Below, piece by piece: positions 1 to 64,000 of a stretch of 64,000 nt of DNA; the stretch's first letter is position 1, and every line of letters begins with the position of its first letter. The notes under the pieces were generated by a model. That model searched no databases and was not told the origin of the DNA. It saw only the letters and a program-made list of their open reading frames with translations. Where the stretch lies: NCBI GenBank assembly GCA_964658305.1, contig OZ210884.1, forward strand, positions 6,200,001 through 6,264,000, written 5' to 3'. Source of the stretch: Leptogorgia sarmentosa (lineage: Eukaryota). A program made the translations under genes and the position numbers.

Positions 1-279
1 TTTTCAATATTGATGAAAACAGGATAATTGAATATTATCAACAACATTTTATATAATACTTTTTATAACATTGTTCATTCCTATTTGTAATAATTCCTAT
101 TTTATAGCAGGCTCATCATTTTTGGCTTAACCCATTTAATTATTCAGCATGTACAGTTATAATCATGTTACTAAGTGGTGTGATAATTAATGTTGGCTAG
201 ATTAATTATTTACTCTGAGAAATAGACCTTGTGAGATAAGCTAGAAGAATCATCAGGTTAATTGATTTCGCTTTTTCAG

Positions 280-3200: not shown

Positions 3201-5271
3201 AGGAAAGGGGAAATTGATGTTACGCGTTGTCAAAAATTACTAGGTAACGCCTAATTGTTCTTACAAAATGGGCATTTAATACATGAGAAATTACTGGGAA
3301 GTGTCGTAGTAGTATGAGAAATTACTGGGAGTGTCGTATACTGGGACGTAGCTGGTTTAATAATACCACTTTTAGTCTGTAAGTAGACAAATGGTGATTG
3401 GTCCTATAAGTTGGTTCGAAAAAACTTGGTTCCATAACTACTCTCGTCTTGTACGTAGCTTCTGATTAAAATCTAGAAAAGAATCTTCATCCACTTTATA
3501 ATTAAAGGGACTAAATGTGGGAAACAAAATCCATTCCCATAAAACTGCTACTTTGGAAAAATGACACAAAAATGGCTATGGATATATTAAGTGATCCTCG
3601 AATTAGCTTGTTTGTGAATTTTTGTTTTTCACTCTACAACCTGCAGTTTTGATGTGATTGTAATGACACCAAGGTTTGTCCAGGTCAAGTTCTCGAAAGG
3701 ACAACCCTCCCTTGTAGACCGATAAGCCGCCACATTTGAATGATGCTCTTCCTCCTTTTCTTTTCCAGATATTATAAAACCACTTCCGGTGACGTTTCAT
3801 CGAGGTACGAAACAAATAGAGTTTACTGATTGTTCATTTTTATCCAATTGCCTCGTTTTCATGATCGTTTGTTACTCGCATTTCGTGGACAGTAGGGTTA
3901 AAGATATAAGTTTATAATTTAGTTAAGTTCTACAAGAAACAATTGCGTAAAAAATAGGAATTTAGCTACATAAAATTCGTACGTGCATCAAACAACCCGT
4001 CCTTGTTATTAACTACTGTATTGACTTGTTGTTTCTTTTCCCTCGTTTTAAAGTGCTTTTGGCCGTTTCAGAAATTTTTATTTATATTTAGCATGATTTT
4101 GTAATATATTTGAGAGCTCCAAACCCTATTGGTAAATACCTTCGTTATATCATTGACCCCAGCATTTGACATGGTCCCAGATCAGAGTGCAGCTTTAGAA
4201 GTCATAATAAACCTTGGATTTGATCGAGTTCTCACAAGTGGTGGAAAAGCCGACGTGCTTCAAGGGGCATCTCATGTGAAAGATCTTGTGGATCAGGTAT
4301 TTATCGAATATTGAATATTCGTTATTTACATAGAAGGAGATTCAGCCTTTTATCGGGTAGGTCGTGTCATATAGGCTTTTGCTTATCTAACCATTAAGCT
4401 CAACGCCTCCCGGCCGAGGGTGACAGTGTTATATAAAATCGAGGTTAAAGAGGCAATAAGAATATTAAAAAGGAGCATGTATATGGTTGAGAAACATGGT
4501 GGAGAAGCATGGTTAAGCACCTTAACCATGCTCCTCATTAAAGAACATAGTATTCAAGGGTGATACTGCTATAAAACCGAGGAGATTTAGGAGGCAATAG
4601 GAATATGAAGAATTCTAATCGGGGTATTGGGAGTAATGCTAAAAATATCTGGAGTTGTGCAATATTGTTGACTCGAGCCAATCATCAACTGCAATTTTTC
4701 GTTGACTAAACTGATTTATATAATAATTTATATTTAAGTAATAATTTTTAGTTTAACTAATAATTTATATTATAATTTATATCAATATAATAATAATTAA
4801 TAGCAATTGATCACCATTACGAAGATGAATTTTTTTGTTTTGCAGGCAGAAAAGCGGATACTAATAATTCCAGGCAAGTCAAAAAACACTTTTGAACCAG
4901 CTAGGACACGATAGCTATAATTGTATTTGGTGTTGAAAATGTAATGAATTGAAATTTTGCCCCCCCCCCCCCCCGCGCATGTCAAAGTCCCACTTTCCGA
5001 TCCAGCGATTCTTTCAAGGGCAAACTTGTCATTTCTTCAATTTGCTCACTTGTTAGGAGGCGGTATTAATGAAGAAAACTTGTCAGAAATATTAAAGGTG
5101 ACTGGAGTGAAAGAATTTCACGGCTCTGCAAGAGTTTATGTTGCTTCTCAAATGGAGTATAGCAACAGCTGTGTTTCAATGGGAGGCACTGGGGACGAGT
5201 ATCGATATATGGTAGCCAGTTTAGAAAGAATAAAACAGCTGACTGTGATAGCAAAGGATTTTCTACAATGA
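280..5271 (+). CDS. cutC: Copper homeostasis protein CutC homolog, 5' exons outside the window. Exons: 280-339, 1578-1746, 1968-2008, [duplicates 2813-2981, 3203-3243], 3769-3804, 4163-4296, 4846-4873, 5057-5271
   Basis: The spliced translation gives GAKRIELCTCLGEGGTTPSFG / PVFVMIRPRGGDFLY...GADGIVFG / PLPVTFHRAFD...GFDRVLTSG / PGGGINEEN...EFHGSAR, the recognisable CutC motifs. All exons join in frame at AG/GT sites except one GC donor. Confidence 0.93.
480..1500. repeat. 13-bp minisatellite (GAGGAGGATGCTT and variants) in a cutC intron
   Basis: Dozens of directly visible tandem GAGGAGGATGCTT / GAGGAGCATGCTT / GGATAGTTAAAGAGCATGCTT units. These explain the repetitive minus-strand 'LLKHPPQASSS' ORFs. 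Confidence 0.95.
2095..2735. repeat. Second block of the 13-bp minisatellite, part of the 1235-bp tandem duplication
   Basis: Same units as 480-1500. It is followed by a repeat of the 1500-2095 sequence at an offset of 1235 bp. Confidence 0.93.
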
Positions 5272-14166: not shown

Positions 14167-17100
14167 ATGATATATCTACATCTTTCAATATTTTTTGTGG
14201 TGTTCCTAAAGGCGAAATCAGGTAATCATAACTGTGAGGTACAACGTTTTGTCCACCATTCATTTTTTCTAGCCTCACCTTTTAGTGCCAAATAAGATAT
14301 AATTTGCTAATTTCTCGTTATCTTCTGATCAATTTTCTCCAACATTAATAAAACAAATTTTGGAATTTTACAAATTTTGAAAGATTCTTAGTCTCAAAAA
14401 TTAGTCCATAATATACACTAAATGTCTGCTCACCAGGGAGATAGTTATCAATCATTCGACGAGGTTTGGCAAAATATCATTGATTTGCTGTGCATAAAAT
14501 TGACCTGTTCGTCCCCTACAAATCACGACATTTTGCCCGAAAAGAGTTCAATAATTCCTTCATTATTCACTTGATAATATTCTCAATTTTGTTTGGTTAA
14601 TTACCTGCATTTTTGTTCTTCAAAGAAAGAGGAAAATCGTCTTCTAAAAGCTTCCGATAAAATTCCACTTGCCTCATAAAGTTTGCCGAATTTTTTTCTT
14701 ATAACAGGCAATGAAGTCAGACACCTGGAATAGTCCGCCTAATCCAACAATTCTTTTGCAATCTTATTTCTTTAGATAAGATATTTTATTTCCTCTTTAG
14801 CTTCTTGGATAAAAGTGCAAGGACAACTGAGACAATTGGATGTCAGTTCTTCGAATGTCTTTTGGGCTGTCGACAGTGAAGATTTTATATATATTGGTGA
14901 TGGAACAACACGGCAACTGGTTTCCGGACGTCTTACTCATGTTTCTACTGGTGGTTCGGGCATTTGGGGGGTCAATGTACACAACCACACCTATTGTCGC
15001 CGAGGAGTTACAGAAAGTATCCCGCAAGGAACAGACTGGTTATTCACTGACGGTGGGACAATCTCTGCGTAATATTAATCTAATCATTGTTTGTTCCTTT
15101 CCCTCTTCGATACAAATACCATATAGCGATTAAATAGTGGCCGTATATTTCATTTTCGACAATTGAATCACGGATTCGTATATTTATTTCCAACTATAGC
15201 AGATATTCACAAATGTTGAGGTCTATGTTTAACAATATCACATGGAGTTCAACTAGATCAATTAACTATATTCTTTAAACTTACTTCTACTTCTTGTCTT
15301 AGGCTGAGATGACACTCTCAAAGATAACATTACTAGTTTCAAAATATTTTTTTCTAGAAAATTTCATGATACAGATAGATTCAGGTCCTCCTGGAATAGT
15401 CTATGGTGTTACAACTGCAAACGATATAAAATGCAGAATCGGTTTCAACATTTCTTCGCCACATGGAACTGGTTGGAGAGACGTTCCTGGAACGATGAAA
15501 TATGTTTCATGTGGTCCACATGGATGTTGGGCTGTAAGCTCGAATAATACAATCTGGTTTCGTCATGGCGTAACTCCCGAAAAATGTGAAGGAAGTACCT
15601 GGACAAATGTAGTTGGGCAGTTAAAACAAATCGAGGTAAATTGTTAAGAAGTGGCCAATTGTTCTATGCATTGACGCTTGCTGCTTGGAGTAAACAGGAC
15701 GAACGCAATTACTAAATTTTTCATTTTGTTCTTCCTGTCATGCTCAAGATAGAAAATCGATTCTTTTTTCTCTTTTGTAGGTAAACAGTATGGGACAAGT
15801 GTGTGGAGTCAATACCGCCGGTGTATTATTTGTTCGTGATGGTATTACTGCCAGTAACCCAACCGGAACTATTTGGAGACTTTTAAACTCACCACGTTTT
15901 ATTCATGTGTCACCTGGAAGTGGTTCAATTTGGGGAATTGACTTTACGGATACTGTTTACTATTACATTGGTGAGTTATTTACAAATTAATTTCGTAAAT
16001 AAAATAGTTTAGGAAACAGTCGTAATTGTGCTAATGAACAACTTACAAACGAAATGGCAAGAACCTTTTAAAGCACGAAATCCCATCGGTGCGTCAATGC
16101 TGAGTACAGCTGAGAGTTTTGGAAGATTTTTTAGCTCTACTTTTTTAAACTTTCGTGCTGTCGATGAAATTACAATACTTATCAAAATGTTATACCTTGT
16201 TCTTTTCCAATAAATAGACAGTTACAAAGTCAAACCAACTTTTTAGATTCTGATCAATGTAGAGAAGGAGCACACAATTGTCATCACAACGCTTCGTGTG
16301 CGAATAATTTGGGGAATTCTTTCACTTGCGTGTGCAATCCTGGTTACACAGGAAATGGGAGCTTTTGTGAAGGTTAGTTACGACGCGACAAATTTAACAG
16401 CACGCCCTGTAAATCTCCTTAATGAACAGCGTATAACACTCAGCTGTATTTAATTGGTGAGATGACTTTGTGAGCTAAGGAAGTTTTTTTTCTCCTTCTA
16501 AAAATTATCATTGTGGCTGTATATATTCTGGGAACCCGAGGCTTCTAATAATACTTTATTAACCATCACACCAATCATCTTTTGCTCCGTTTTGTGTCTC
16601 TTCAATTTAAAAAATCCAATTTTTTCTATGACGTTTATTGTGTTCGGTTTCAGATCCTCAATTTAAACCTTTCAGATCTTGATGAATGTACAGCAGGAAC
16701 ACACAATTGCCATGATGACGCAACATGTAGCAATATAATGGGTTCTTACACTTGTCTCTGCAATCCAGGCTTCACAGGGAATGGGACATTTTGTGAAGGT
16801 TAGCTATAACGTCTTACAAATCAGCACGAAATATAATATTTGTTTTTGGTGGTATTGGATTGAGCACGTGCTACATACCTGCAATTTCTTTTTGTTTTCA
16901 ACATGTAACGTTGTAAATGCCGAAGCATATTTTTCTAGAGCATCTTGATTATAAGATCATTCAGCATTTCGTATAAATTACATTCAAACTCCACATGCAG
17001 TATCCTTACTGTTTACCATTTCCTGTTTTATTACGCCATTTTTATCCGCCTAATTCAGCGGATGTTTAAGTGAAAAGTACCCTAGTAAGGTTATTGGCAT

Positions 17101-32100: not shown

Positions 32101-35100
32101 TGGAGTTCCACGGGATCAATTAACTATATTCTTTAAATTTACTTCTACTTTATATCTTAGGCTGAGATAACACTCTCAAAGATAACACTACTAGTTTCAA
32201 AATAAATTTTCTAGATAATTTCATGATACAGATAGATTCTGGTCCACCTGGAATAGTCTATGGTGTTACAACTAAAAACGATTTAAAATGCAGAATCGGT
32301 TTCAGTATTTCTTCGCCACATGGAACTGGTTGGAGAGACGTTCCTGGAACGATGAAATATGTTTCATGTGGTCCACATGGATGTTGGGCTGTAAGCTCGA
32401 ATAATACAATCTGGTTTCGTCATGGCGTAACTCCCGAAAAATGTGAAGGAGGTACTTGGACAAATGTAGTTGGGCAGTTAAAACAAATCGAGGTAAATTG
32501 TGAAGGAGTGGCCAATTGTTCTATGCATTAACGCTGGCTGCTTGGAGTAAACAGGACGAACGCAATTACTAATCTTTTCTTTTCGTTCTTCCTGTCATGC
32601 ATGGTCAAGATAGAAAATCGATTCTTTTTTCTCTTTTGTAGGTAAACAGTATGGGACAAGTGTGTGGAGTCAATACCGCCGGTGTATTATTTGTTCGTGA
32701 TGGTATTACTGCCAGTAACCCAACCGGAACTATTTGGAGACTTTTAAACTCACCACGTTTTATTCATGTGTCAGCTGGAAGTGGTTCAATTTGGGGAATT
32801 GACTTTACGAATACTGTTTACTATTACATTGGTGAGTTATTTACAAATTAATTTCGTAAATTAAATATTTTAGGAAACAGTCGTAGTTAATTGTGCTAAT
32901 GAACAACTTACGAACGAAATCGCAAGAAACTTTTAAAGCAGGAATTCCCATCGGTACGTGAATGCTGAGTGCAGCTGAGAGTTTTGGAAGATTTCTTAGC
33001 GCTACTTTTTTAAACTTTCTTGCTGTCGTTGAAATTACAAAACTTATCAAAATGTTATACCTTGTTCTTTTCCAATAAATAGACAGTTACAAAGTTAAAC
33101 CAACTTTTTAGATTCTGATCAATGTAGAGAAGGAGCACACAATTGTCATCACAACGCTTCCTGTGCGAATAATTTGGGGAATTCTTTCACTTGCGTGTGC
33201 AATCCTGGTTACACAGGAAATGGGAGCTTTTGTGAAGGTTAGTTACGACGCGACAAATTTAACAGCACGCCCTGTAAATCTCCTTAATGAACAGCGTATA
33301 ACACTCAGCTGTATTTAATTGGTGAGATGACTTTGTGAGCTAAGGAAGTTTTTTTTCTCCTTCTAAAAATTATCATTGTGGCTGTATATATTCTGGGAAC
33401 CCGAGGCTTCTAATAATACTTTATTAACCATCACACCAATCATCTTTTGCTCCGTTTTGTGTCTCTTCAATTTAAAACATCCAATTTTTTCTATGACGTT
33501 TATTGTGTTCGGTTTCAGATCCTCCATTTAAACCTTTCAGATCTTGATGAATGTACAGCAGGAACACACAATTGCCATAATGACGCAACATGTAGCAATA
33601 TAATGGGTTCTTATACTTGTCTCTGCAATCCAGGCTTCACAGGGAATGCGACTTTTTGCGAAGGCTAGTGATTTTTATGCTCAAAAGACTGCAGAAAAAG
33701 CTTGGTGTAAAATAGGAAAGAAAATTGCTGAAACCATTGAAACTGTGATTTCGTTTTTTCTAGTTTATTGTCTAAACGTTATTTTCACATTTTTTTCTTA
33801 CCATTTTATAGATCTTGATGAATGCACTGATGGTACACACAATTGTCACAATATATTTGCAACATGTCAAAACAGAGTTGGTTCATTTGAATGTAGTTGC
33901 AATGACGGATTTTCTGGAGATGGTGTTAGTTGCGAAGGTAAGTAACGAAATAATGTTCAATCAGGCTTTTGAGTTAATTTCGTCTGTGATCTAAGTTTAT
34001 ATTTATCTCTTAGTCCATTAGGTTATTTGGAATAAAGTGAAAAATTACTTTAAATTAGCCATTTTTGTTTCTACGTGTAAATCACCAAGTGACGTTTATA
34101 CTGGAAAATGCTAAATTACTATAAAGGCTGCTGTATAGCCTTAGAATAAAGGAAGGAGTCAAGGAGAACATGTACATTTACTTTCCCTTATAATATGATT
34201 GTCATTATTTATTAGTTCATTATCAAATGTGGTTTTTACGGCGGTTTACACTTACTTTTTATAGATCTTGATGAATGCACTGATGGTACACACAATTGTC
34301 ACAATACATTTGCAACATGTCAAAACAGAGTTGGTTCATTTGAATGTAGTTGCAATGACGGATTTTCTGGAGATGGTGTTAATTGCGAAGGTAGGTAGCA
34401 ACAAATTAATGTTCAATGCATGCTGTTGAGTTAATTTCGTCTGTGATGTAATTACTAATTATAGTTCATTATCAAATGTGGTTTTTACGGTTTACACTTA
34501 CTTTTTATAGATATTGATGAATGCACTGATGGTACACACAATTGTCACAATACATTTGCAACATGTCAAAACAGAGTTGGTTCATTTGAGTGTAGTTGCA
34601 ATGACGGATTTTCTGGCGATGGTGTTAATTGCGAAGGTAGGTAGCAACAAATTAATGTTCAATGCAAGCTGTTGAGTTCATCTGCCCTGTGATCTAAGTT
34701 TATATTTATCTCTTAGCCCATTAGGTTATTTATAATAAGGTGAAAATATGATTTATCGTCGTTTAATTAATGGTAAAAACACATTATTTTCACGATTGAG
34801 TGTTATACATAATTATATGCAATTTAAACCTTTCAGATCTTGATGAATGTACAGAAGGAACACGCAATTGCCATGACGACGCAACATGTACCAATATAAT
34901 CGGTTCTTACTTCTGCACCTGCAATCCTGGCTTCACAGGGAATGCGACTTTTTGCGAAGGTTAGTGATTTTTATACTCAAAAGTTGGTGCAAAATAGGAA
35001 GGAAAATTGCTGAAACCATTGAAACTGTGATTTCGTTTTTTCATAAGTTTATTGTCTAAACGTTATTTTCACATTTTTTCTTACCATTTTATAGATCTTG

Positions 35101-42965: not shown

Positions 42966-44252
42966 ATGAGAATGGAGAAACATGGCTGGATCACGAAATT
43001 TACTGCTCTTCGATTCTTCTTGGGTGGCATTGAAATTTACATTATTGCGCCTACAGCATGGTACTATATCAAATCCATGGGTCAGACAAAATTTTTTCTC
43101 GCTTTAGTCTTCACTGCCTACAACGTTGGCGCGATTATTGCTGGTCCTCTGTTCGGATTCTTAACAGATAAATTCGGAAATCCGAGGTTTATGTTTATTA
43201 GCTGTTGCGCAATGAAAGTCGTAGCTAATGTTATATACAGCATTAATCTTAGTGCATATTTCCCTTTGTTTGGAAGGCTGATGACTGGATTAAGTGGCGA
43301 TATAGCAATCCTTCTAGGGCAAGTTGCACTGCAGACAGAGGAAGAAAATCGCGGAAAAAACTTTGTGTTTTTGGAAGGTATATATTGTCTTGGAGCAGTA
43401 TTTGGTCCAGGAATTGGGAGTTTCATTTCATTCCGTGCGAATATATTAGGTTGGGAGATAGATGAGGGAAATTCGCCGGGAATTGTGTTGGCCATAATAT
43501 ATCTTATTTTTTTGATGGCATCGCTGTTATTACCTAAGGAAATCTGGGTGCCGAGCAACAAACAAAGTTCAACCGAAAAGGATTACGACGAAGGACTCGT
43601 TGATTATGAAAACAGTGATGATGAAACGCTTGCAGCACACCGCAATCCTGACGGGAAACTTAGTTACCTTTTGGACTCACGAATTTTATGTTTACTGTTC
43701 CTAATATTCTCTAGTGAAGTGTTTTCAAGCACGGCAACATTTTATGCTCCTATATTGGCACTGGATCATTTCCATCTAAAAGAGATCCACGTTAAGTTGT
43801 TATTCCTAAATTGCACTTTATTTACACTCCTACTTTTCATCTGTCTTCATTTGGTTTCAAAATATATCGAGGAAAGAAAACTTTTTGCATTTGCTTTGTT
43901 GATGGAAATAACTGCAATAATATTTCTAGCGTCATTGGCGTTCTTCTGGAATCAAGTCACTGATGTCCAGTATTACGTTCTACTTTTATACATCTGTCTG
44001 GGCATGCCGTATTTTGCGAATCCTTATGGAAATTCCATCCTTTCAAAGATCACGGATCCTAAGAATGCAACACTGGTTCAAGGCATATCACTGGCAACTG
44101 TACATTCGGCCATTGCATTATGTCGAGTACTGGTTAGTTTTGCATTTACGAAAACGAGCTTGTTATGTTACTGTTTTGGTATGGTCATTATGTGGTTGAT
44201 TGGTGTTATATGGTATGCTGTGTTGTATCGGAGAATGGTCCCAAGTGAATGA
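42966..44252 (+). CDS. Major facilitator superfamily transporter (MFSD8-like subgroup probable), 428 aa, intronless CDS
   Basis: About 12 hydrophobic segments in two halves separated by an acidic loop. MFS motif A-like GFLTDKFGNPR, GR..TG in TM4 and GAVFGPGIG in TM5. AATAAA follows the stop. Confidence 0.88.
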   Translation: MRMEKHGWITKFTALRFFLGGIEIYIIAPTAWYYIKSMGQTKFFLALVFTAYNVGAIIAGPLFGFLTDKFGNPRFMFISCCAMKVVANVIYSINLSAYFPLFGRLMTGLSGDIAILLGQVALQTEEENRGKNFVFLEGIYCLGAVFGPGIGSFISFRANILGWEIDEGNSPGIVLAIIYLIFLMASLLLPKEIWVPSNKQSSTEKDYDEGLVDYENSDDETLAAHRNPDGKLSYLLDSRILCLLFLIFSSEVFSSTATFYAPILALDHFHLKEIHVKLLFLNCTLFTLLLFICLHLVSKYIEERKLFAFALLMEITAIIFLASLAFFWNQVTDVQYYVLLLYICLGMPYFANPYGNSILSKITDPKNATLVQGISLATVHSAIALCRVLVSFAFTKTSLLCYCFGMVIMWLIGVIWYAVLYRRMVPSE

Positions 44253-44842
44253 ATAAAAAGTAAAAATTTACTTTATACATAGCCTATACGTTATGAATGT
44301 TTGTAGTTTTTTACGGAGAATAATAAATAAATGTGCAGAAATATGAATTTATTACGAGACTGGGTTTATCACATACTTTCCCTCAAGGGATAAAACTGAT
44401 ATCACCTCATCCCTCATATAACCTCTACAGGTTCCCTCCCTTTTCAGTGCTGACCTTATGTCACAACATCATTACCAATCGTTAATTTTTAACAAAACTA
44501 GAAACATGAAACCATGCCGCCCAGGCAATCCATGACATAGCTCCTTTTGATGAGATTAAGATTCTAATCAATAATTCGATATAATAACCAAAACATAAAT
44601 AATTTTCCAAACTAAACCCACTAACTTTATTCGACCAATCTGGTTATACATTCACAAACGGAATATGTTTTCATTTATCAACTACAATTGGTTTAATTAT
44701 TTTTACATAACAGTAAAAAATAAACCTGGTGCACTAAAAGTAATAAATGTTTACCGCAGTGTTCTTGCGATAATCTGTTCGCTTTTACATTCTAAAGTAC
44801 AACTAAGCTATTCCTCCAATGTTTTCATCTGAAGTGTATCAG

Positions 44843-47800
44843 TTACTTAGCTCCTTTTGGTTTAGTTACGACGGCGATTCTCTCTCGAACTGGAATATTG
44901 AACAATTCTTTATGTGTGCCGGGTGTTTGGCCACGCAAATCAAAATCGACATGCACTCCAGGCTGGAACACGAGGCAATGAGTGGAGCCACCAAAATGGA
45001 ACATACCAAGCTGGTCTCCCTTTTTCACGCGATCACCAGCCATCACTGTAATCTCGTTGGTGGACACTTCGGACATACCAATCGAGACAAAAACCATTAG
45101 ACCAATATCAGGATTATCAGCTTGGATGTAAACAATACCTCGAGCGGCAACTTGGCAGAGGTAGGCTTGGGATTCATTGGGTGACGCGGCATCAGTTTGG
45201 ATATCATAGGTTTGGGAATAATAAGAGCCATCCACCAACTCTGTTTGCAAGATCAAACCGGAAACTGGACTATGCCATCGATGATAGCTGGTCGCGCTCA
45301 AAAAGGCCTGGTAAACAGTACCACCGTAGAACCTCTGCGCCAGCTGATGATTGTTGAGCATGTGATCTAAATGATTTTTTAGAACTTGTCACACATACAG
45401 AAAACTGAGAAAAGTTTAGAAAAATCGACATTAAATTAGTGTTGTCAAACTAAAGTAGGAGTTCCTATTCAACTAACCCAGGATGAAACTACCAGCTCTT
45501 TGAAATCAGAGTTTACATAGCTTTTCAAAGGTACTGGTACCCAGGGTTGCCACTTGCGAGTATTAAATTTTGGCTATTTATCTTATTGCGAACTCTTTAT
45601 AACTCCTTATTATAACATTTGTAAATTAATCATCCTATGACATGTCACTATTATTAGCATTTATTTTGTAAAACTTTTATATATTTTACTGATCTATTTT
45701 AAACTAGTTATGTAAACTTGTGTTTTTCAGTTCGACTCTGAACTTCCATTAAAGTATTTTCTAATAAGTCAGAAATCAAATCAGTCAAGCCATCATTAGG
45801 CCAACAATGAAAAGGAAAAGTAATTACAAAGAAAAGAAAAGAGCGCTGCTAGCATTGCTAAAAAGTTTGGCTATTTATTCGAGTGATTTTTTATTGTACT
45901 TTTACTGGCATTTCAAATATTTTTCAATGTCTGGCATGTTTTAGGACTCTGCAATTATTAATAGTCGAGAAGTCTTGATGAATACTGAAATATTGTTTAG
46001 TGGAAACGTAAAGAATGCGTATTGCTTGACATACAGCGATAGCACTATCAATACACTGATTTTCCGCACAAGCTCTATGAACAGAATCTCGCCCCAAAAC
46101 GCAGGAAACGCATTTTAGGACTCTACTTTTCAAATTTCACCATGGGAATACAACCTCTGGCAGAATAGTACTAGTTGTAACTCCACCTAACGCCAAGTGA
46201 TCTGACGTCTGCCCCTCCCGTCCTAAAATTTCTAACCAAAAGCCTATAGAAGAACCTCAGGGCTCAGACATGTATACTGTATTATGCTAACAAAATCTGC
46301 TAGTTGTCCTTACCTAAGGAATATTGTTGATTCTTGATCCAGAACCAATCCTTTTTGTTCACATTACGTGCCAACTTGAAGGGTGCAGACTCACAGCAAT
46401 TTGCTATGACAGTATCATCATCAGGAGCTTCGACTGGACGAACTCCTTCGCGATATAATCTCACAAAGAAATCATCCCATGACTTGAATCCGTAATGTGT
46501 GGCCTTTGGATTACATTCAAATTCCTCGACAAAATTTGGCATGGCCTCCATCGCGTCTTTACCAAACCAGCCATGATGAGGATCATTAGTCAAAACATAA
46601 GTTGATGCTTTACTGGACAAAAATTTGCCCCAGTAATTCAAAATATCCTTGAATAATTTGTTGACCTATAAAATACGTATAGGAATACGTTGCTTTTAGT
46701 TATTTTAAAGGCTAATTTTACGAGCTCATAACTAGCAGCACTATTGGGGACTGACTGCATCTGATACTTGTACCTACTTTGTCATTCAGGAATGCAGCAA
46801 AGCCTGCAGGGGTAGCCATTGGCCAATTCAAGATGACGTTAATGGGAAACCCAACCAAACCAGTTTTGTTAAACTCAGGAGCTGTGTCCATGATCGCATT
46901 GATAATCAGAATCATAGTTTCCCAACAATCCACCACCACTGAGCCTCTTGGCATTGGCACTTTCTTCTGCTGCCAGAACATTTGATGAAAAAACATGTTG
47001 ATCTCTAGAAAAAGAAAGGTGATTAATTTACCTGCACCACGTTTATCATAGAGCTTTATATTTCACTTTACTATAGCGGGACAATAAATTGAGGATCGCG
47101 ACTTGACCTACATGGCCTGTAGCCAAAGTAGAAATATATCTTAGCTTGCTAGAGCAATCTGCGACTGCCTGTGCCCTAAGATGCACTAAAATACCGCTAT
47201 ATAATACTACTCATTTTGCAGAATCTTAGATTGTGGTCGATCTACGGTGCGTACAAAGACCATGCACCGTTTCCGCACAGTAGCTCAAATATTTCGGTAT
47301 GCAATCTGGGTTCTTTGAAATTTTGACTATTACACTTGTACCGAGTTGTTTGTATTGCAATTAACTAAGCGACGTCGAATTTATTTAAATATTTTACAAT
47401 ATGCCATGCACGCTGCTGAGCCATATACAGTGGTAAACAAGTACTTGTACTAAAAACCTCAGTCGGATATCTCACTTACAGACCTCAATATCTGTCAATA
47501 ATCCAGTTAAAATTGGCTGAATACAAAATCTGCGGTTTATCTCCACTTGACACAATTGTACGCAAAACATCGAAAGAACACAAAAAATACTTGTACCTTC
47601 TGCCAGCGGAAACGCCCACTGCGAAATCAGTTTTCAACTATAATCGATAGCGCCATCACATTCAAAGGGCGTGGTGGGTTTTTTGCCATCAATTTCTCAT
47701 GCAGAATTTTTATCTTGAATGCAACGAATCTCATCTTCAAGCATAAAGGAACTTGCACTCTATACTCGCTTGACAAAACTTATCTAGGTATAGCATTCCT

Positions 47801-48164
47801 CTGGACGATATATCATGCTATCTGCTGCACCTTTGTTGCAACCTGCGCAATTTGAATGCAATGCAAAGAACGTTCAATATGCTGTATTACCTGGGTCCGT
47901 AAGAATTGCATTCATCAATGCTTCAACAGGAGGATGAAGTCCTAGCTCGGAAGGATCAATGTCGGGACAGCAGGTATGCGGATGGCCTTTCATGGCTGTA
48001 TTTTCGTCTTCAGCGGGTGGATGTAGTTTCATCATCAGGTCATACTTTGCTTTATGCTTGGTCTTGAGGTCTTTGAGAAGACCAGCGAGCCATTTGTCAG
48101 TGACGCTTCTATCTGAAGGAAGCCATTGACCAATGGGTTGACGCTTTTTCTGTTTGGAGCTCAT
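44843..48164 (-). CDS. Phosphatidylserine-decarboxylase-family pyruvoyl enzyme of the soluble bacterial/fungal (PsiD-like) type, 458 aa. Exons 48164-47891, 47004-46778, 46665-46314, 45366-44843
   Basis: Four exons with GT-AG introns join in frame (1377 nt). Motifs: GQWLPSD..W, LVGFPIN..LNWPM.TPAG, YWGKFL.S, GFKSWDDFFVR, CESAP, YHRWHSPVSG, GMSEVST, and the self-cleavage motif GMFHFGG/STHCLVF. Confidence 0.88.
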
Positions 48165-52333: not shown

Positions 52334-53298
52334 ATGATACAGAGATACATCCAGTGTTTTTCTTTGCTGCTGTTTGTAACAACAACATGCGCAGAAGGTT
52401 CAGTATTGAACAAGCCACAAGTCTGCGCGAGTAATAACGCTGTCCTTGGCACAGAAATCAACATGAACGAGCAGAAGAAAACTCATATTCGTATCAGAAG
52501 ATCATAAAAACAATCGAAGATGTCTTGGTTGCGAATGGTGTGGTTGTGATTCGAAATCAGACGATGGACAGACATGCCCAGTGCAATTTCACAGAGAATC
52601 TCGGAGCGATAATTGTACTGCCTCAATCCTTCGAGAACAATGACCCAGAACCAGGGCTACCAGCTATTCAGAGAGTCACCAACTACTTCCACAATGGAAC
52701 ATGGAAGGGGGTTCGCCATTGTTTCGGATGTTATTGGCACAAGGACGGAAATTTCCATTCGTCCGACTACATAGCAAGTTTACTCTATGCTCAAAAGGTG
52801 CCCGGCCCTGCCAAAGCAACAATGTTTCTGGATAACTGCGTCGCTTACGATCTCATTCCTTCAGATCTAAAAGAACGGATCAAGGACACAATCTTCTGGG
52901 TGTCGGTTCGGGATATTCCAGATTTTAAAAACGGCACGGAAGAGGACTTGGCCCTTTTCCCAGAAGCTGCATTGCATCCCATATTCTACACTCACCCTGG
53001 TTCAGGACGTCGTTGTTTGTATATGACCAACACGATGGTGACGCTGCGACCCAAGAGTGTGGACGAAATGAGAGATCTACAGGCAGCCTGGGATATCATG
53101 ACCACTCAGGCACCTAAATATTACCACTATTGGACCTCAGGAGACATCGTTATTTGGGACAATCTGGCAGTCATGCACAAAGCAGGCAAGAAACGGACTG
53201 GATCTTCTCCCAAAGATCCAAGAATGCTCTTCAGGACTCAATATTATATCAGTAAGACTACAAGAGAAAATATTTTGGACCTTGACCTAAGAGCTTGA
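52334..53298 (+). pseudogene. TauD/TfdA-family dioxygenase copy 1, frameshifted near 52473 (pseudogene or sequencing error)
   Basis: The ATG at 52334 begins the same signal peptide as copies 2 and 3. aacgagcagaagaaaac here versus aacgagctggaagaaaac in copy 2 is a 1-nt deletion. The rest of the domain (52525-53298) is intact and has a different, longer C-terminus. Confidence 0.8.
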
Positions 53299-54794: not shown

Positions 54795-55715
54795 ATGATA
54801 CAGAGATATATCCAGTGTTTTTCTTTGCTGCTGTTTGTAACAACAACATGTGCAGGAGGTTCAGTATTGAACAAGCCACAAGTCTGCGCGAGTAATAACG
54901 CTGTCCTTGGCACAGAAATCAACATGAACGAGCTGGAAGAAAACTCAGATTCGTATCAGACGATCATAAAAACAATCAAAGATGTCTTGGTTGCGAATGG
55001 TGTTGTTGTGATTCGAAATCAGACGATGGACAGACATGCCCAGTGCAAATTCACAGAGAATCTGGGAGCGATAATTTTAGTGCCTGAATCCTTCGAAACC
55101 AGTGACCCAGAACCAGGGCTGCCAGCTATTCAGAGGGTCACCAACTACTTCCACAATGGAACATGGAGGGGGGTTCGCTATTGTTTCGGATGTTATTGGC
55201 ACAAGGACGCAGATTACCATTCAGTCGACTACGTTGCAAGTTTACTCTATGCTCAAAAGGTGATAGGCCCTGCCAAAGCAACAATGTTTCTGGATAACTG
55301 TGTCGCTTATGATCTCATTCCTTCAGATCTAAGACAACGGATCAAGGGCACAATCTTCTTGGTGTCGGTTCGGGACATTCAATATTTTGAAAACGCCACG
55401 GAAGAGGACTTGGCCCTTTTCCCAGAAGCTGCATTGCATCCCATATTCTACACTCACCCTGGTTCAGGACGTCGTTGTTTGTATATGACCAACATGATGG
55501 TGACGCTGCGACCCAAGACTGTGGACGAAATGAGGGATCTACAGACAGCCTGGGATATAATGACCACTCAGGCACCTAAATATTACCACTATTGGACCTC
55601 AGGAGACATCGTTATTTGGGACAATCTGGCAGTCATGCACAAACCAGGCGAGAAACGGACTGGATCTTCTCCCAAAGATCCGAGGATGCTCTTCAGGACT
55701 CAATATTACATTTAA
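54795..55715 (+). CDS. TauD/TfdA-family Fe(II)/2-oxoglutarate dioxygenase copy 2, 306 aa, predicted signal peptide, intronless
   Basis: LGTEI, L..NGVVVIRNQ, WHKD (HxD), T.FLD...AYD, HPI...HP.SGRRCLY, W..GDIVIWDNLAVMH and R.L.R are the TauD-family motifs. The N-terminus MIQRYIQCFSLLLFVTTTCAG is hydrophobic. Confidence 0.9.
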   Translation: MIQRYIQCFSLLLFVTTTCAGGSVLNKPQVCASNNAVLGTEINMNELEENSDSYQTIIKTIKDVLVANGVVVIRNQTMDRHAQCKFTENLGAIILVPESFETSDPEPGLPAIQRVTNYFHNGTWRGVRYCFGCYWHKDADYHSVDYVASLLYAQKVIGPAKATMFLDNCVAYDLIPSDLRQRIKGTIFLVSVRDIQYFENATEEDLALFPEAALHPIFYTHPGSGRRCLYMTNMMVTLRPKTVDEMRDLQTAWDIMTTQAPKYYHYWTSGDIVIWDNLAVMHKPGEKRTGSSPKDPRMLFRTQYYI

Positions 55716-58316: not shown

Positions 58317-59237
58317 ATGATACAGAGATACATCCAGTGTTTTTCTTTGCTGCTGTTTGTAACAACAACATGTGCAGGAGGTTCAGTATTGAACAAGCCA
58401 CAAGTCTGCGCGAGTAATAACGCTGTCCTTGGCACAGAAATCAACATGAAAGAGCTGGAAGAAAACTCAGATTCGTATCAGACGATCATAAAAACAATCG
58501 AAGATGTCTTGGTTGCGAATGGTGTGGTTGTGATTCGAAATCAGACGATGGACAGACATGCCCAGTGCAATTTCACAGAGAATCTGGGAACGATAATTGT
58601 ACTGCCTCAATCCTTCGAGAACAATGACCCTGAACCAGGGCTACCAGCTATTCAGAGAGTCACCAACTACTTCCACAATGGAACATGGAAGGGGGTTCGT
58701 CATTGTTTCGGATGTTATTGGCACAAAGACGGAGATTTCCATTATGTCGACTACGTTGCAAGTTTACTATATGCTCAAAAGGTGATAGGCCCTGCCAAAG
58801 CAACAATGTTTCTGGATAACTGCGTCGCTTACGATCTCATTCCTTCAGATCTAAAAGAACGGATCAAGGACACAATCTTCTGGGTGTCGGTTCGGGATAT
58901 TCCAGATTTTAAAAACGGCACGGAAGAGGACTTGGCCCTTTTCCCAGAAGCTGCATTGCATCCCATATTCTACACTCACCCTGGTTCAGGACGTCGTTGT
59001 TTATATATGACCAACACGATGGTGACGCTGCGACCCAAGAGTGTGGACGAAATGAGAGATCTACAGACAGCCTGGGATATCATGACCACTCAGGCACCTA
59101 AATATTACCACTATTGGACCTCAGGAGACATCGTCATTTGGGACAATCTGGCAGTCATGCACAAAGCAGGCAAGAAACAGACTGGATCTTCTCCCAGAGA
59201 TCCAAGGTTGCTCTTCAGGACTCAATATTTCATTTAG
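58317..59237 (+). CDS. TauD/TfdA-family Fe(II)/2-oxoglutarate dioxygenase copy 3, 306 aa, predicted signal peptide, intronless
   Basis: Same motifs as copy 2 (WHKDG, DIVIWDNLAVMH, RLLFR); intact ORF. Confidence 0.9.
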   Translation: MIQRYIQCFSLLLFVTTTCAGGSVLNKPQVCASNNAVLGTEINMKELEENSDSYQTIIKTIEDVLVANGVVVIRNQTMDRHAQCNFTENLGTIIVLPQSFENNDPEPGLPAIQRVTNYFHNGTWKGVRHCFGCYWHKDGDFHYVDYVASLLYAQKVIGPAKATMFLDNCVAYDLIPSDLKERIKDTIFWVSVRDIPDFKNGTEEDLALFPEAALHPIFYTHPGSGRRCLYMTNTMVTLRPKSVDEMRDLQTAWDIMTTQAPKYYHYWTSGDIVIWDNLAVMHKAGKKQTGSSPRDPRLLFRTQYFI

Positions 59238-59625: not shown

Positions 59626-61135
59626 ACTTTGCCTCTAACTTTTACAATGCCTTATTTCTAACCTTTCTTACTTTGCCTCTAAAAGAAGTGAATTAATATA
59701 CAATTCATTAGCCAATCAATTTAGGGGGAAAATCTGACAAATTCATCGAAATATACAGACAAGCCAATAAAAAACAAGTATTTCTTTATTTCTATTACAG
59801 CAACATAGTTCATCATATTACACATTTTAAAATTTTATGAATAAGTTTTAACTGAATTCTTCAAGAAGGTAGAATCATGACAAAAATTTTCGGACACCTT
59901 AGCACTGAACTACATCCCAATAATTCTCGATTAAAGTTTTGATATTAATCGCAAAGACGGAAGGGTGTGGTCAGAATTGGAGAAGAATTTTGCCATGATT
60001 GTACTGAACTTCGCCTGCGTTGTTTGCATTTCTTTGCACGCGTCTTTGATCTCAGCAATATTTTTTACTTTTTTTCAGGAATAGCAATAGGCGTAGGATT
60101 TATCTTGTTAAGGACCAGATTTTTGTACTGTATGAAGTTCAAGGGCAAAGCTATTTTTGTTGATATCGTGAGGTATGCCGTCGTGTTAGTGTTTTGGCAC
60201 GTGTAGAAGAGTGTTGCCACGACCTGTTTCCATTTCTTGCGCGCTAAATTGATCGACTTGTTTAATGGTGCCTGTATACCTGAAAATATGTTAAATATTT
60301 CCCGAACTCTGCTCTGCCTCAGGAAAGGAAAATCAGACTGAACATTGGCGTTTGCAATGAGCAATACTGGCCGAAGTATTTTCTAAACGACTTACCTATT
60401 CAAAAAGCACTAGTACACGTGCTTAGCATACTTACCCTTCTTAACCCACGGAAAGTATTATACTTACAAACCAACGTTCACGACGTTCACGCAGCAGAAT
60501 ACGATATGCGTGATCAGGATATTTACCTTTATTTTTTTCCGGTCCGTAACTCCCGGTCCGTAACCTAAATAGAGCTTTCTGATTGGTTGCCGAGCGGTCC
60601 GTAACCTACTTTACGGACCGCTCGCATGCATTCTCGTAGATTTAATACAAATATAGTCAATGTTTTTGTTTTTTAAAACTGAATGACCGCTTATTAAAAT
60701 ACTCAAAACGAATTTAGGCGATAAAGAACACATGAAAGTCCATTTTATTATGCTACGGGATATTTTAGGGGGTATTTACAGCGACAAAAACAAAAGACAA
60801 AAGTCTCGTCAGTATCAACAAAGCAAAACAAAACATTCTCGGCGAAATATTTCGGTGTCTAATGCGTATTTTAACCATGTTTCTAACGTGAAACGACCGG
60901 AAAAATAAATAATCTTAACAAGTTTACCTTTTTCATCGTAATGTTGAGTGGAAATGCGTGAATATGGAAGAAAATGCGTCAATATTGAGGGGTTTTTCCT
61001 CACTTCGTCTTGGCTGTTTAGCAGCCATACTTGCAATGGAGTAGCAAAGTAAACAAACAAACTGATCTCAAAATCTAGTTCGCAACACTGGAATTTTTGA
61101 CGAATTTTATCATAACATCGAGGAAAAAAAATAAA

Positions 61136-61282: not shown

Positions 61283-62659
61283 ATTTCTGAAACCACTCAA
61301 AATACTTACAAAAGAGCTTTCAGAACAATGTTTCTAAAGCACAACTCACAGGAAACCAGCAATTACGTCCAGGTAAAATAAAACTCGGTTTTCCACGATA
61401 AAACTATTTTCAAAGCACTTGAACCATATCGTAGCAGAGTTTTGTTTACCACGAGGCACAACATTCCGTCATAGAAATTTTCCGTGCTGGTGGGACACTT
61501 TGCTTTGCGTTTCTAAAAGAGAAAGTCTAAACAAACATTTTTAATGGAACTAATATTTGGCTGAATTTCTACATTATCTTATATCTTATCCTCAATCTCT
61601 TATCCCCACCCTAACCCCAAATCTATCTATCCTATTGGCTCACTTGACTAACCCCAGTGATCATCCTTTCGGGACAAAGTTCTATGGAAAATGCAATGTT
61701 TCATACATATGTGCACCCAGTGAATTTCTCGGGTATAATGCGGTTATTTCACTACATCGACGTTTTCAGCTTTGATGTGAATTAGCAGCAATAATATTAC
61801 ATTTAATTCAATCTACTCTCCCGTTTACAACTCCTCAGAATTTGGAGAAACAAGTGAGAGGTTAACTCTGTATTCGATACTTTTTCCAGAGAATTTTCAT
61901 GAACTCCCTTCTTTTTACCGTAGTAGCTAACAGAGTACGCCGTACTTTAAACCACCACAACCCAACGTTGACTAATTTGAAAGAAAGCTTCGTCCACACT
62001 AATCCAAGCTATCCAAACGTTGAAGCAATGCCATTTTGCTATTTCTTTTTCTATTTGTACAAAACTATGTTTGTCATTTACAAAGTGCAATGCCCTGTAA
62101 AAAATAATTACATACAATTTCAATTCTGTCATACGAAATATCTTTAGAATTACATGAGAATAAGAAAGTGCCATATTTACTGACGAACCGCAGATGAAGA
62201 AGAGATGTACAAAATTATAGCGAGGCGACAAAACGGACTTGACAACCAAAGATGCCCCGAAAATTCAGATTTCTACATGCTTCCTTTGTAGCATCGTTTT
62301 ACAATTTCAGTGTAATGATTTTCTATTCCTTCTCCTTCGACACGCACACATGTGCAGCTGATAGAAAGGAGAGCAACGCCACTAGAACTTACCATCACAC
62401 CCAACACATCTTCGCCTCGCGAACCGTCTGTGCCGATTGCATTCTCCTTTTCATTAGAACTGAACACGTCCAATTGAAGTTTTGTTATCACCCTAAAAAC
62501 TTACCAATGGCTAACCGCATGGTGACGTCTTGGTTTAACTTTCAAGCAAATCTTTTGTATTTCTCTTGTTGAATATATTCTATTTCTTCAGATTTCTTCT
62601 TCCATTCAGTGATGATACGTCGTCACCAAGATTCTGTCTTCCGGCTAGCCAAATACTGT

Positions 62660-63008
62660 GTTTTCCCCGGGATTGGCCATGAAGTCCAACGCAACTCTTG
62701 TTTCCCCGGGATGGGCCATGACGTCCAACGCAACTCTGTTTACCCGGGATGGGCCATGAAGTCCAACGCAACTCTTGTTTCCCCGGGATGGGCAGTGACG
62801 TCCAACGCAACTCTGTTTACCCGGGATGGGCCATGATGTCCAACGCAACTCTGTTTCCCCGGGATGGGCCGTGACGTCCAACGCAACTCTGTTTCCCCGG
62901 GATGGGCCGTGACGTCCAACGCAACTCTGTTTCCCCGGGATGGGCCGTGACGTACGACGCAACTCTGTTTTCCCCGGGATGGGCCGTGACGTCCGACGGG
63001 ACAACTCT
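62660..63008. repeat. ~37-38-bp GC-rich minisatellite, about 9 copies
   Basis: Tandem ccccgggatgggccgtgacgtccaacgcaactctgttt units. Confidence 0.95.
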
Positions 63009-64000
63009 TTGTGATTTCCTAGAAAAGCTGCTGGGACAAATCGTATTGCAATTTCACATCGAGCATGCAAGTACATGCATTTCATTTGTGTTAAACAAAC
63101 ATATATTTCGAATCAACATTTTCACATGGGGTAGAAATGTAGTACGATCCAGATATGACGACTAAGGAATTATATATTTCGACACAAAGGCGATTATAAT
63201 AAACGGACAATCACTACGACCAAACACTTCTAAAAAGTAATAAAATCATGCAAGTAACATCTTCTAAAATGAATTGAAAGTTTCGAGATTCTCTCTTGTA
63301 CGCGAGAAGACACAGTTCTTAAACGAAAGTTTCGTTAAAACCTCCTAAAATGTTATTTAAATCCTCTAACAGTGATCCGACTTCATTTCTAGGAGACCTG
63401 ATCTGACAACATCTCTCTGTAGGGAATCACGACACTTGTGTTATAAAAACTCTTGGCATTTTCATACGTCGCTACAGCCATTTCTTCAAACATCATTTCT
63501 GAACAACACCAAGCTTTCTACCAAGACTTAACGTCCATACGTCCACAACAGACTCGATTTACTAAATTCAGTACACGTTCAGCTAACTTCATAACAGCAA
63601 GTTCCGAGAATCTTCTGCAAGTTTTGCTGCTTTCAGGAAAGGGGTGGTTCCATGTATGGTACTTCCGTTTTTCACCAAAAAGACAAATTTCAAGTTCAGT
63701 TTGGGGGGTCGCATTTTCTCTACCACTTTCAAAATGGTTTATGAATTCCTACGCTAGTTTTAAATGTGATAATGTTCAAAGTTCATTCCAGGATCTTTCC
63801 TTAGTAGCGTCTCATTGTTCCACTTCGAGGGATGGTGGGGACAGGGGCGGCCCTGAAGGGATCACTACGACCAGAAATAGGTACAGGACGCCGGCTGGTT
63901 ATGACAGGTACGGTCATGGGAGGTGGATGTTGACTGATCATCCTAGGTGGCAGGGCAGAACCACGGCTGGGTGGGATCACTGTACGAGATCTGTCAATGG

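Follow-up and report, generated by a model that had tools for sequence, protein, structure and literature searches.

A spliced PSDC-type pyruvoyl decarboxylase gene in Leptogorgia sarmentosa and its possible descent from an ancient bacterial transfer

The amino-acid decarboxylases with which animals make amines are mostly pyridoxal phosphate (PLP) enzymes, and the alkaloids of sponges and corals are usually attributed to their symbionts. A stretch of 64,000 nucleotides from Leptogorgia sarmentosa (GenBank assembly GCA_964658305.1, contig OZ210884.1, positions 6,200,001 to 6,264,000 of the forward strand; here called the window and numbered from its first letter) carries on its minus strand, at 44843..48164, a gene for a putative decarboxylase of the PLP-independent, pyruvoyl type. 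How did an animal come by such a gene, and on what would its product act? A reading made from the sequence alone, hereafter the sequence-only reading, had proposed a relative of the fungal enzyme PsiD that was horizontally acquired or patchily retained and that used a non-lipid substrate. Our analysis leads us to favour, with confidence slightly above even, an old bacterial gene that was taken up by early animals and whose product is now a soluble pyruvoyl decarboxylase of a free polar or basic amino acid.

The gene and its predicted enzyme

Four minus-strand exons assemble into an open reading frame (ORF) of exactly 458 codons that closes with one terminal stop. Exon 1 (47891..48164, residues 1-91) contains the GQWLP motif and an N-terminal insert of animal type and is covered by a spliced contig from position 48184; exon 2 (46778..47004) encodes PSDC domain sequence and the LVGFPIN pocket loop; exon 3 (46314..46665) comprises the end of the PSDC domain and the start of PF02666 including the triad residue Glu259 (46390-46392); and exon 4 (44843..45366) runs through the catalytic PF02666 core to the stop codon. 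The introns are all of the GT-AG type: intron 1 (47005..47890, 886 nt, phase 1), intron 2 (46666..46777, 112 nt, phase 0) and intron 3 (45367..46313, 947 nt, phase 1). Their joints are seen in public contigs (Logan) of four runs from three studies, those of introns 1 and 3 in all four runs and that of intron 2 in three of them. A single contig of 1605 nt covers 48184-44639, and the 3′ untranslated region (44603..44842) is given as far as the contigs extend (contig ends at 44603-44639). These spliced contigs reproduce exactly the model of the sequence-only reading. No run is catalogued as RNA, a circumstance that speaks neither for nor against expression, which is read instead from the joints: because the contigs precisely omit all three introns they are best read as mRNA. 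The decarboxylase gene is intact, spliced and transcribed. Other frame-keeping splice choices, twelve combinations in all, were rejected since only the 458-residue model agrees with the contig joints. No second copy was found within the window.

Animal-type neighbours and spliced contigs from three studies show that the gene is integrated in the host genome. Contamination of the window, against which the sequence-only reading had likewise argued, was rejected on account of the spliced introns, the animal-type neighbours and a GC content at third codon positions of 0.45 that lies inside the neighbours' range of 0.38-0.49.

Pfam searches of the single-exon frames recognised both PSDC (PF12588; E-values of 3e-19 and 3e-12) and PS_Dcarbxylase (PF02666; 1e-25) above the curated cut-offs. 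The motifs that had been reported earlier are located as described: GQWLP (the GxWLP motif) at residues 12-16, LVGFPIN at 141-147, LNWPM at 150-154, YHRWHSP at 312-318 (45266..45286) and GGST at 410-413 (44981..44992). PsiD, the tryptophan decarboxylase of Psilocybe cubensis, is described as having a catalytic triad E242-H296-S403, a cleavage point within GGSS, ten residues that contact the indole and an autoinhibitory residue, Trp27 (PMC11929908); Glu259, His313 and GGST of the window protein align with its E242, H296 and G401-S403, and the Glu-His-Ser triad and GGS are retained in 357-371 of 374 aligned rows.

For fold and equivalog comparisons we used the nearest homologue of the window protein, a Dendronephthya protein (P0003) to which it is 73% identical. 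The PDB sequences closest to P0003 are PsiD (E-value 8e-65) and the Aspergillus oryzae enzyme Ao-ADC1 (4e-59), compared with 6e-12 for the phosphatidylserine decarboxylase (PSD) of Escherichia coli. Foldseek, applied to the AlphaFold model of P0003 rather than to the window protein, returned template-modelling (TM) scores of 0.60-0.62 to PsiD and ADC1 and of 0.34-0.37 to E. coli PSD; two parts of the model, the lid loop (334-354) and residues 1-13, are of low confidence, and it is hence uninformative on substrate. Six NCBIfam lipid-decarboxylase models match P0003, all far under cut-off (at best 107 versus 371 bits). By sequence, then, the window protein is a member of the PsiD/ADC1-type (PSDC) family and not an animal PISD, in agreement with the sequence-only reading. 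That reading had also noted the lack of an obvious transmembrane segment or transit peptide. The hydropathy profile argues against a membrane-spanning helix (the highest Kyte-Doolittle mean over 19 residues is 1.54, at residues 112-130), and the N-terminus looks like a short basic stretch and not a leader, a judgement made by eye only and with no targeting predictor.

By analogy with PsiD and Ao-ADC1 the protein is predicted to self-cleave into a soluble pyruvoyl enzyme. Glu259 and His313 would activate Ser412, and cleavage of the Gly411-Ser412 bond would yield a β chain of 411 residues and an α chain of 47 residues in which Ser412 has become the N-terminal pyruvoyl group. The substrate would bind to the latter through its amine as a Schiff base, CO2 would be lost and hydrolysis would free the product amine, PLP not being required. 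Trp14, conserved in 312 of the 374 rows, is likely to serve as an autoinhibitory plug in the manner of PsiD Trp27, whose spacing of 44 to D71 fits the 39-45 of bacterial and fungal proteins; HMMER left PsiD unaligned before residue 47.

The pocket and the candidate substrates

The indole pocket of PsiD is formed by L112, P114, Y117, F289, V292, Y338, L339, M373, T374 and I376 (PMC11929908). The window protein has V142, F144, N147, F306, A309, P347, N348, M382, S383 and V385 at these ten positions, with N147, P347 and N348 in place of Y117, Y338 and L339; the lid-loop pairs P347/Y338 and N348/L339 are those of a profile alignment, single-sequence alignments putting the gap elsewhere. Measured over these PsiD-defined positions the pocket is identical to that of ADC1 at eight of ten (the differences being V/I and N/D) and to that of PsiD at two of ten, which makes tryptophan unlikely. 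Ao-ADC1 is cleaved at GGST, converts arginine to agmatine and has no PSD activity, as summarised in a review (PMC12904898). Furthermore, 75 of 75 bacterial proteins (those ORFs from 80 bacterial loci that passed a length filter) have V142, N147, P347, N348, M382 and V385 without exception; this pocket is the default of the family, which suggests an old shared substrate under selection. The window protein probably removes CO2 from a free amino acid that is polar or basic, and arginine-like rather than tryptophan. Arginine or another basic amino acid would be the single likeliest class, albeit a tentative choice well below even confidence; another polar or acidic amino acid is possible and ranks next, and some other substrate, or none at all, seems very unlikely.

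Several observations weigh against an arginine-like substrate. The lid-loop Asp of ADC1 is replaced by Asn348, a change that may cost a contact with arginine and may even exclude this substrate; the overall score is slightly higher to PsiD than to ADC1; and the PsiD mutants L112A, F289A and Y338A are reported to keep activity on tryptophan (PMC11929908). Because several PsiD pocket mutants retained activity, identity of the pocket is a weak predictor of substrate. This same tolerance would suit a tryptophan or aromatic decarboxylase like PsiD, giving tryptamine-type metabolites, as the automatic NCBI name of the homologues ('L-tryptophan decarboxylase-like') suggests, and PsiD is the top PDB match both by sequence and by fold. 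We nonetheless regard such a substrate as improbable: only two of the ten indole contacts are identical, the site of Y117, mutation of which lowers PsiD activity (PMC11929908), is Asn in the window protein, and its GGST contrasts with the GGSS that marks tryptophan decarboxylation as a derived function of PsiD according to Reynolds et al. (PMC6121855). In addition, a Dendronephthya paralogue, P0063, would fit that role better.

Dendronephthya gigantea encodes two divergent paralogues, P0063 and P0079, in which the Trp of GxWLP is absent, a Tyr occupies the site of PsiD Y117 and the cleavage motif is GGSS; P0063 scores 211 bits against PsiD and 172 bits against ADC1. On these sequence features both are better candidates for aromatic decarboxylases than the window protein.

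Phosphatidylserine is a still less probable substrate. A soluble or peripheral PSD that makes phosphatidylethanolamine was assumed for sponge genes in 2016, and it would account for the PF02666 core, for a GGST that is described as a PSD autocleavage motif (PMC12904898) and for an amphipathic helical N-domain with one moderately hydrophobic stretch. Against it, P0003 falls far short of every PSD equivalog cut-off, both PSDC-type enzymes that have been assayed act on free amino acids (ADC1 without PSD activity, in the review's account), and a PF02666 protein from a bacterial locus that has no PSDC match is only 25% identical to P0003. The non-lipid substrate of the sequence-only reading is therefore the likelier one, given the inactivity of ADC1 as a PSD and the low PSD scores, while the pocket points away from tryptophan, which that reading had named among the substrates to assay.

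The gene context of bacterial relatives gives a hint toward amino-acid decarboxylation. A Pfam scan covered 77 adjacent and 20 selected ORFs out of 352 in the bacterial loci, and four of the 77 adjacent same-strand neighbours fit this activity: bacterial members lie beside an Orn/Lys/Arg decarboxylase with an amino-acid permease upstream (L013:1137-6236), beside a deiminase-family gene (L033:748-3925), beside an amino-acid permease (L060:3-1995) and beside a pyruvoyl histidine decarboxylase together with a second PF02666 gene (L068:1441-6228). To be set against this, the four were chosen after the fact and without a background rate, and the bacterial neighbourhoods are not conserved and form no operon, the largest shared neighbour family being present at 5 of 80 loci.

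Distribution and origin of the animal branch

The sequence-only reading had held the family to be mainly microbial. Among non-bilaterian animals it is in fact not rare and occurs in multiple copies in octocorals, stony corals, a hydrozoan and demosponges. An organism is named for 24 of the best 120 matches to exon 4 (12 animal, 10 bacterial and two fungal), the animals being Dendronephthya (four), Oculina (three), Acropora (two), Porites, Montipora and Anneissia; other searches added Clytia, Amphimedon, Halichondria and Orbicella. The nearest relatives are those of the octocoral Dendronephthya (73%), followed by stony corals, Clytia and demosponges, and the window protein clusters with Dendronephthya with a support of 99-100. 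Cnidarian branching roughly follows the species, so that the broad and species-tree-like animal distribution which the earlier reading had named as evidence against transfer is found in part. At the same time, close relatives occur in about 1100 prokaryote stretches, the best 80 of which cover many phyla, the ESM Atlas search matched only large and mostly bacterial clusters, and the Amphimedon protein P0370 is 62-63% identical to named bacterial proteins. No unicellular holozoan is named in three top-120 lists, one of which has names on 24 and another on 6 of its 120 rows; of 30 sequence clusters looked up, 5 have a named organism.

The only named bilaterian among the matches is the crinoid Anneissia japonica. 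Its protein (P0005) is nested within the stony corals (97/92), is 82% identical to an Orbicella protein and 82-85% identical to coral-type proteins, and a topology that forces it outside the stony corals is marginally rejected (p 0.04). This placement points to assembly contamination or coral-to-crinoid transfer and not to vertical descent.

In every cnidarian- and sponge-type row that was examined, an insert separates the GxWLP motif from the PSDC domain. The distance from the Trp to a conserved Asp is 72-98 residues in cnidarian-type and 49-63 in sponge-type rows; it is 39-45 in all 14 rows from named bacteria or the bacterial clade in which the Trp is retained, and 42-44 in two fungal rows. 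Trees were computed from 66 rows picked by hand from the 374, a set from which most near-identical coral rows had already been removed. When the insert columns are left out, a single branch separates the 34 rows with an insert from the others, with a Shimodaira-Hasegawa-like (SH-aLRT) support of 98 (mixture model, quick search), and an LG+G4 tree recovers the same split plus the row P0198 (89/96); in both IQ-TREE trees three named fungi fall among the bacteria, away from the animal sequences. Because the rows with an insert cluster with one another amid bacterial sequences and not with fungi, one old transfer is favoured, and we hold a single bacteria-to-animal event to be the case with modest confidence, somewhat on the probable side of even. 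The gene would have arrived intronless before the split of sponges and cnidarians, gained the N-terminal insert, undergone duplications in several lineages and been lost from most bilaterians.

A single transfer has to contend with a number of contrary results. The trees are unrooted, having no outside family as root; FastTree on the 374 rows gives the animal-type rows as a grade and not a clade; the divergent rows P0198, P0205 and P0206 also have long spacings of 52-59; and just two of the 21 sponge-type rows bear a sponge name, so the others might be different organisms. Approximately unbiased (AU) tests reject neither animals plus fungi as one clade (p 0.195) nor cnidarians with divergent non-sponge rows (p 0.271). 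The first of these test results leaves room for vertical descent, on which view the common ancestor of animals and fungi, or an older one, already had the family and most lineages, among them nearly all bilaterians, later lost it; the pocket that basidiomycete copies share and the roughly species-like branching of cnidarians agree with it. We judge it unlikely, given that neither IQ-TREE tree places the fungi with the animal rows, that the two fungal rows checked have no insert, that sponge copies are intronless and so similar to bacterial proteins, and that the top-120 lists, in which few rows are named, contain no named unicellular holozoan. Two or more transfers, with separate bacterial sources for sponges and cnidarians or with cnidarians receiving the gene from a sponge-like animal, seem about equally unlikely: a separate cnidarian origin survives the second test, the cnidarian stem is long, cnidarians are nested among sponge-type rows, the cnidarian insert is unlike the acidic insert of sponges in sequence, and the crinoid copy inside the stony corals hints at mobility of the gene or at a contaminated assembly. 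However, sponge and cnidarian inserts share one location in the protein, and the rows that bear them group even without the insert columns. As to the transfer that the sequence-only reading had supposed, a bacterial source is thus the likelier one, but the event would be ancient and not specific to this lineage, and vertical descent shared with fungi is statistically not rejected.

The introns are not a feature of the family at large. Among 18 metagenome contigs with the cnidarian-type motif, here termed coral-type, 15 are uninterrupted at all three intron positions, one is uninterrupted but in two frameshifted pieces and two are truncated. Six of the 18 extend upstream for more than 2 kb, which makes genomic DNA probable, although the nature of these contigs as DNA or RNA is not on record, which tells against leaning on them. 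Three Amphimedon PF02666 genes are listed as single-exon, of 1293-1299 nt, in the supplement of PMC4784904. Because Amphimedon and stony-coral-type copies lack introns, intron gain is the simplest reading: the introns of the window gene are probably later gains from an intronless ancestor, all three of which would have been acquired on the line to the octocoral-type gene. Retroposition in other lineages is the alternative.

These Amphimedon genes link the window gene to earlier work. Conaco et al. (2016) list the Amphimedon queenslandica 'PSD' genes Aqu1.212309, Aqu1.214640 and Aqu1.228146 as putative horizontal gene transfers of 430-432 codons with Desulfovibrio as top hit, interpreted as lipid enzymes; a Haliclona homologue was found, Aqu1.212309 is given at 618 reads per kilobase per million (rpkm) in adults versus 6 in larvae, and the word 'cnidaria' does not occur in the main text (PMC4784904). 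Aqu1.212309 and P0370, which groups with the window gene, are both 432 residues long, and the three genes probably belong to the same family, a match by length and organism and not by accession. The animal branch is therefore broader and older than the sequence-only reading had supposed, its sponge end having probably been flagged already as horizontally transferred. In the literature searched, which had few subscription journals, no published work was found that deals with the cnidarian copies or with a role of the animal members other than in lipid metabolism; PMC11350588 mentions neither pyruvoyl nor PsiD.

Genomic surroundings and known relatives

By Pfam, the neighbours in the window include a rhodopsin-type G-protein-coupled receptor, tectonin and EGF domains, a major facilitator superfamily (MFS) transporter and three TauD-family genes. 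The MFS gene (42972-44252, plus strand) is a single exon of 426 codons that faces the decarboxylase gene tail-to-tail and stops about 350 nt short of where the transcript of the latter ends; its contig cover, none in two of the four runs and low in the other two, is not interpretable. The TauD/TfdA-family dioxygenase genes (52334-53298, 54795-55715 and 58317-59237, plus strand) stand in tandem, are apparently intronless and 88-98% identical, and encode proteins whose N-termini resemble signal peptides by eye. Their closest PDB matches, all weak, are SdpA/TfdA-type enzymes and ScoE, and in the Atlas the top-ranking clusters are for the most part viral (tailed phage) or bacterial; the three genes may represent a second transferred family. 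A contig of 1029 nt covers the third copy. The first is frameshifted near codon 46 (52471-52473), where contigs of two of the four runs have an extra base, and the frameshift is an allele or an assembly error.

Could these genes form a small animal biosynthetic cluster, in which decarboxylase, transporter and dioxygenases would lead to a hydroxylated amine? The MFS stop lies close to the decarboxylase transcript and the three TauD genes lie 4-11 kb upstream of it, and fungal clusters are described in which a PsiD-type decarboxylase is paired with MFS transporters or a 2-oxoglutarate dioxygenase (PMC6121855, PMC7383597). The idea is nevertheless improbable: no TauD or MFS match was found in 80 bacterial loci or in the 18 coral-type loci, which at 2-9 kb are not long enough for a decision, and the putative signal peptides of the TauD proteins, seen by eye, do not match a decarboxylase that looks cytosolic. 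No psi cluster genes were found among the long ORFs of the window.

Elsewhere on the plus strand, duplicated tectonin-domain exons and an EGF-Ca exon (15303-15647, 32166-32531 and 33604-33945) probably belong to tandem lectin-like genes. Positions 1-4000 are occupied by a tandem-repeat array with strong G skew and repetitive ORFs, and a second tandem repeat lies at 62645-63112. At 59768-60530, a region with no long ORF, contigs of all four runs end at 60530 and at least some continue beyond, which suggests an exon of another transcript.

Taken at its widest, the evidence would be compatible with the proposal that sponges and cnidarians make biogenic amines with PLP-independent pyruvoyl decarboxylases of their own, acquired once from bacteria at the base of the animals, whose paralogues were re-tuned from an ADC1-like default to PsiD-like forms with Tyr and GGSS in octocorals, possibly clustered here with TauD and MFS genes, and which would supply agmatine-, homoagmatine- or tryptamine-type building blocks of sponge and coral alkaloids. 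We consider this doubtful as a whole. The expressed multi-copy family of corals and sponges, automatically labelled as lipid enzymes or 'tryptophan decarboxylase-like', would constitute an overlooked route to amines. It yields a short list of host enzymes as candidate makers of marine alkaloid precursors, and it would be a clean case in which to study an ancient transfer and the later gain of introns in single lineages. This is moderately surprising, with the family already in public annotations and the sponge copies probably flagged before as transferred genes.

Among known systems, canonical PISD is membrane anchored and has no PSDC domain. The window protein shares with the PSD/PISD enzymes the catalytic β-core and the pyruvoyl chemistry; it differs in having GGST where these are described with LGST (PMC11929908), and E. 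coli PSD (PDB 6L06, 7CNW) is set apart by an identity of about 22% and TM scores of 0.34-0.37. IboD of Amanita muscaria, a proposed ibotenate decarboxylase after which one Acropora homologue is automatically named, is reported as 32% identical to PsiD (PMC7383597), and its activity is said to lack biochemical demonstration (PMC13609693). Uncharacterised bacterial PSDC proteins annotated as 'phosphatidylserine decarboxylase family' (Desulfovibrionales, Bacteroidota, Acidobacteriota and others) are 48-59% identical to P0003 over most of their length, and differ by lacking the N-terminal insert and introns and in some cases by having N-terminal leaders. PsiD (PDB 8X4Q, 8ZIA) resembles the animal proteins in fold (TM 0.60-0.62), in identity (37-38% for P0003), in the Glu-His-Ser triad and, once the insert is discounted, in the distance from the N-terminal Trp to a conserved Asp-Pro, while the window protein has GGST and not GGSS and only two of its ten indole contacts. 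Ao-ADC1 (PDB 9JER, 9JF5, 9JFN) has the same pairing of PSDC and PF02666, the same GGST and catalytic His and eight of the ten pocket residues, with a TM score of 0.62 and 35% identity for P0003; from it the window protein departs by Asn348 in place of the lid-loop Asp, by YHRWHSP for YHCWNAP and by the N-terminal insert of the animal type.

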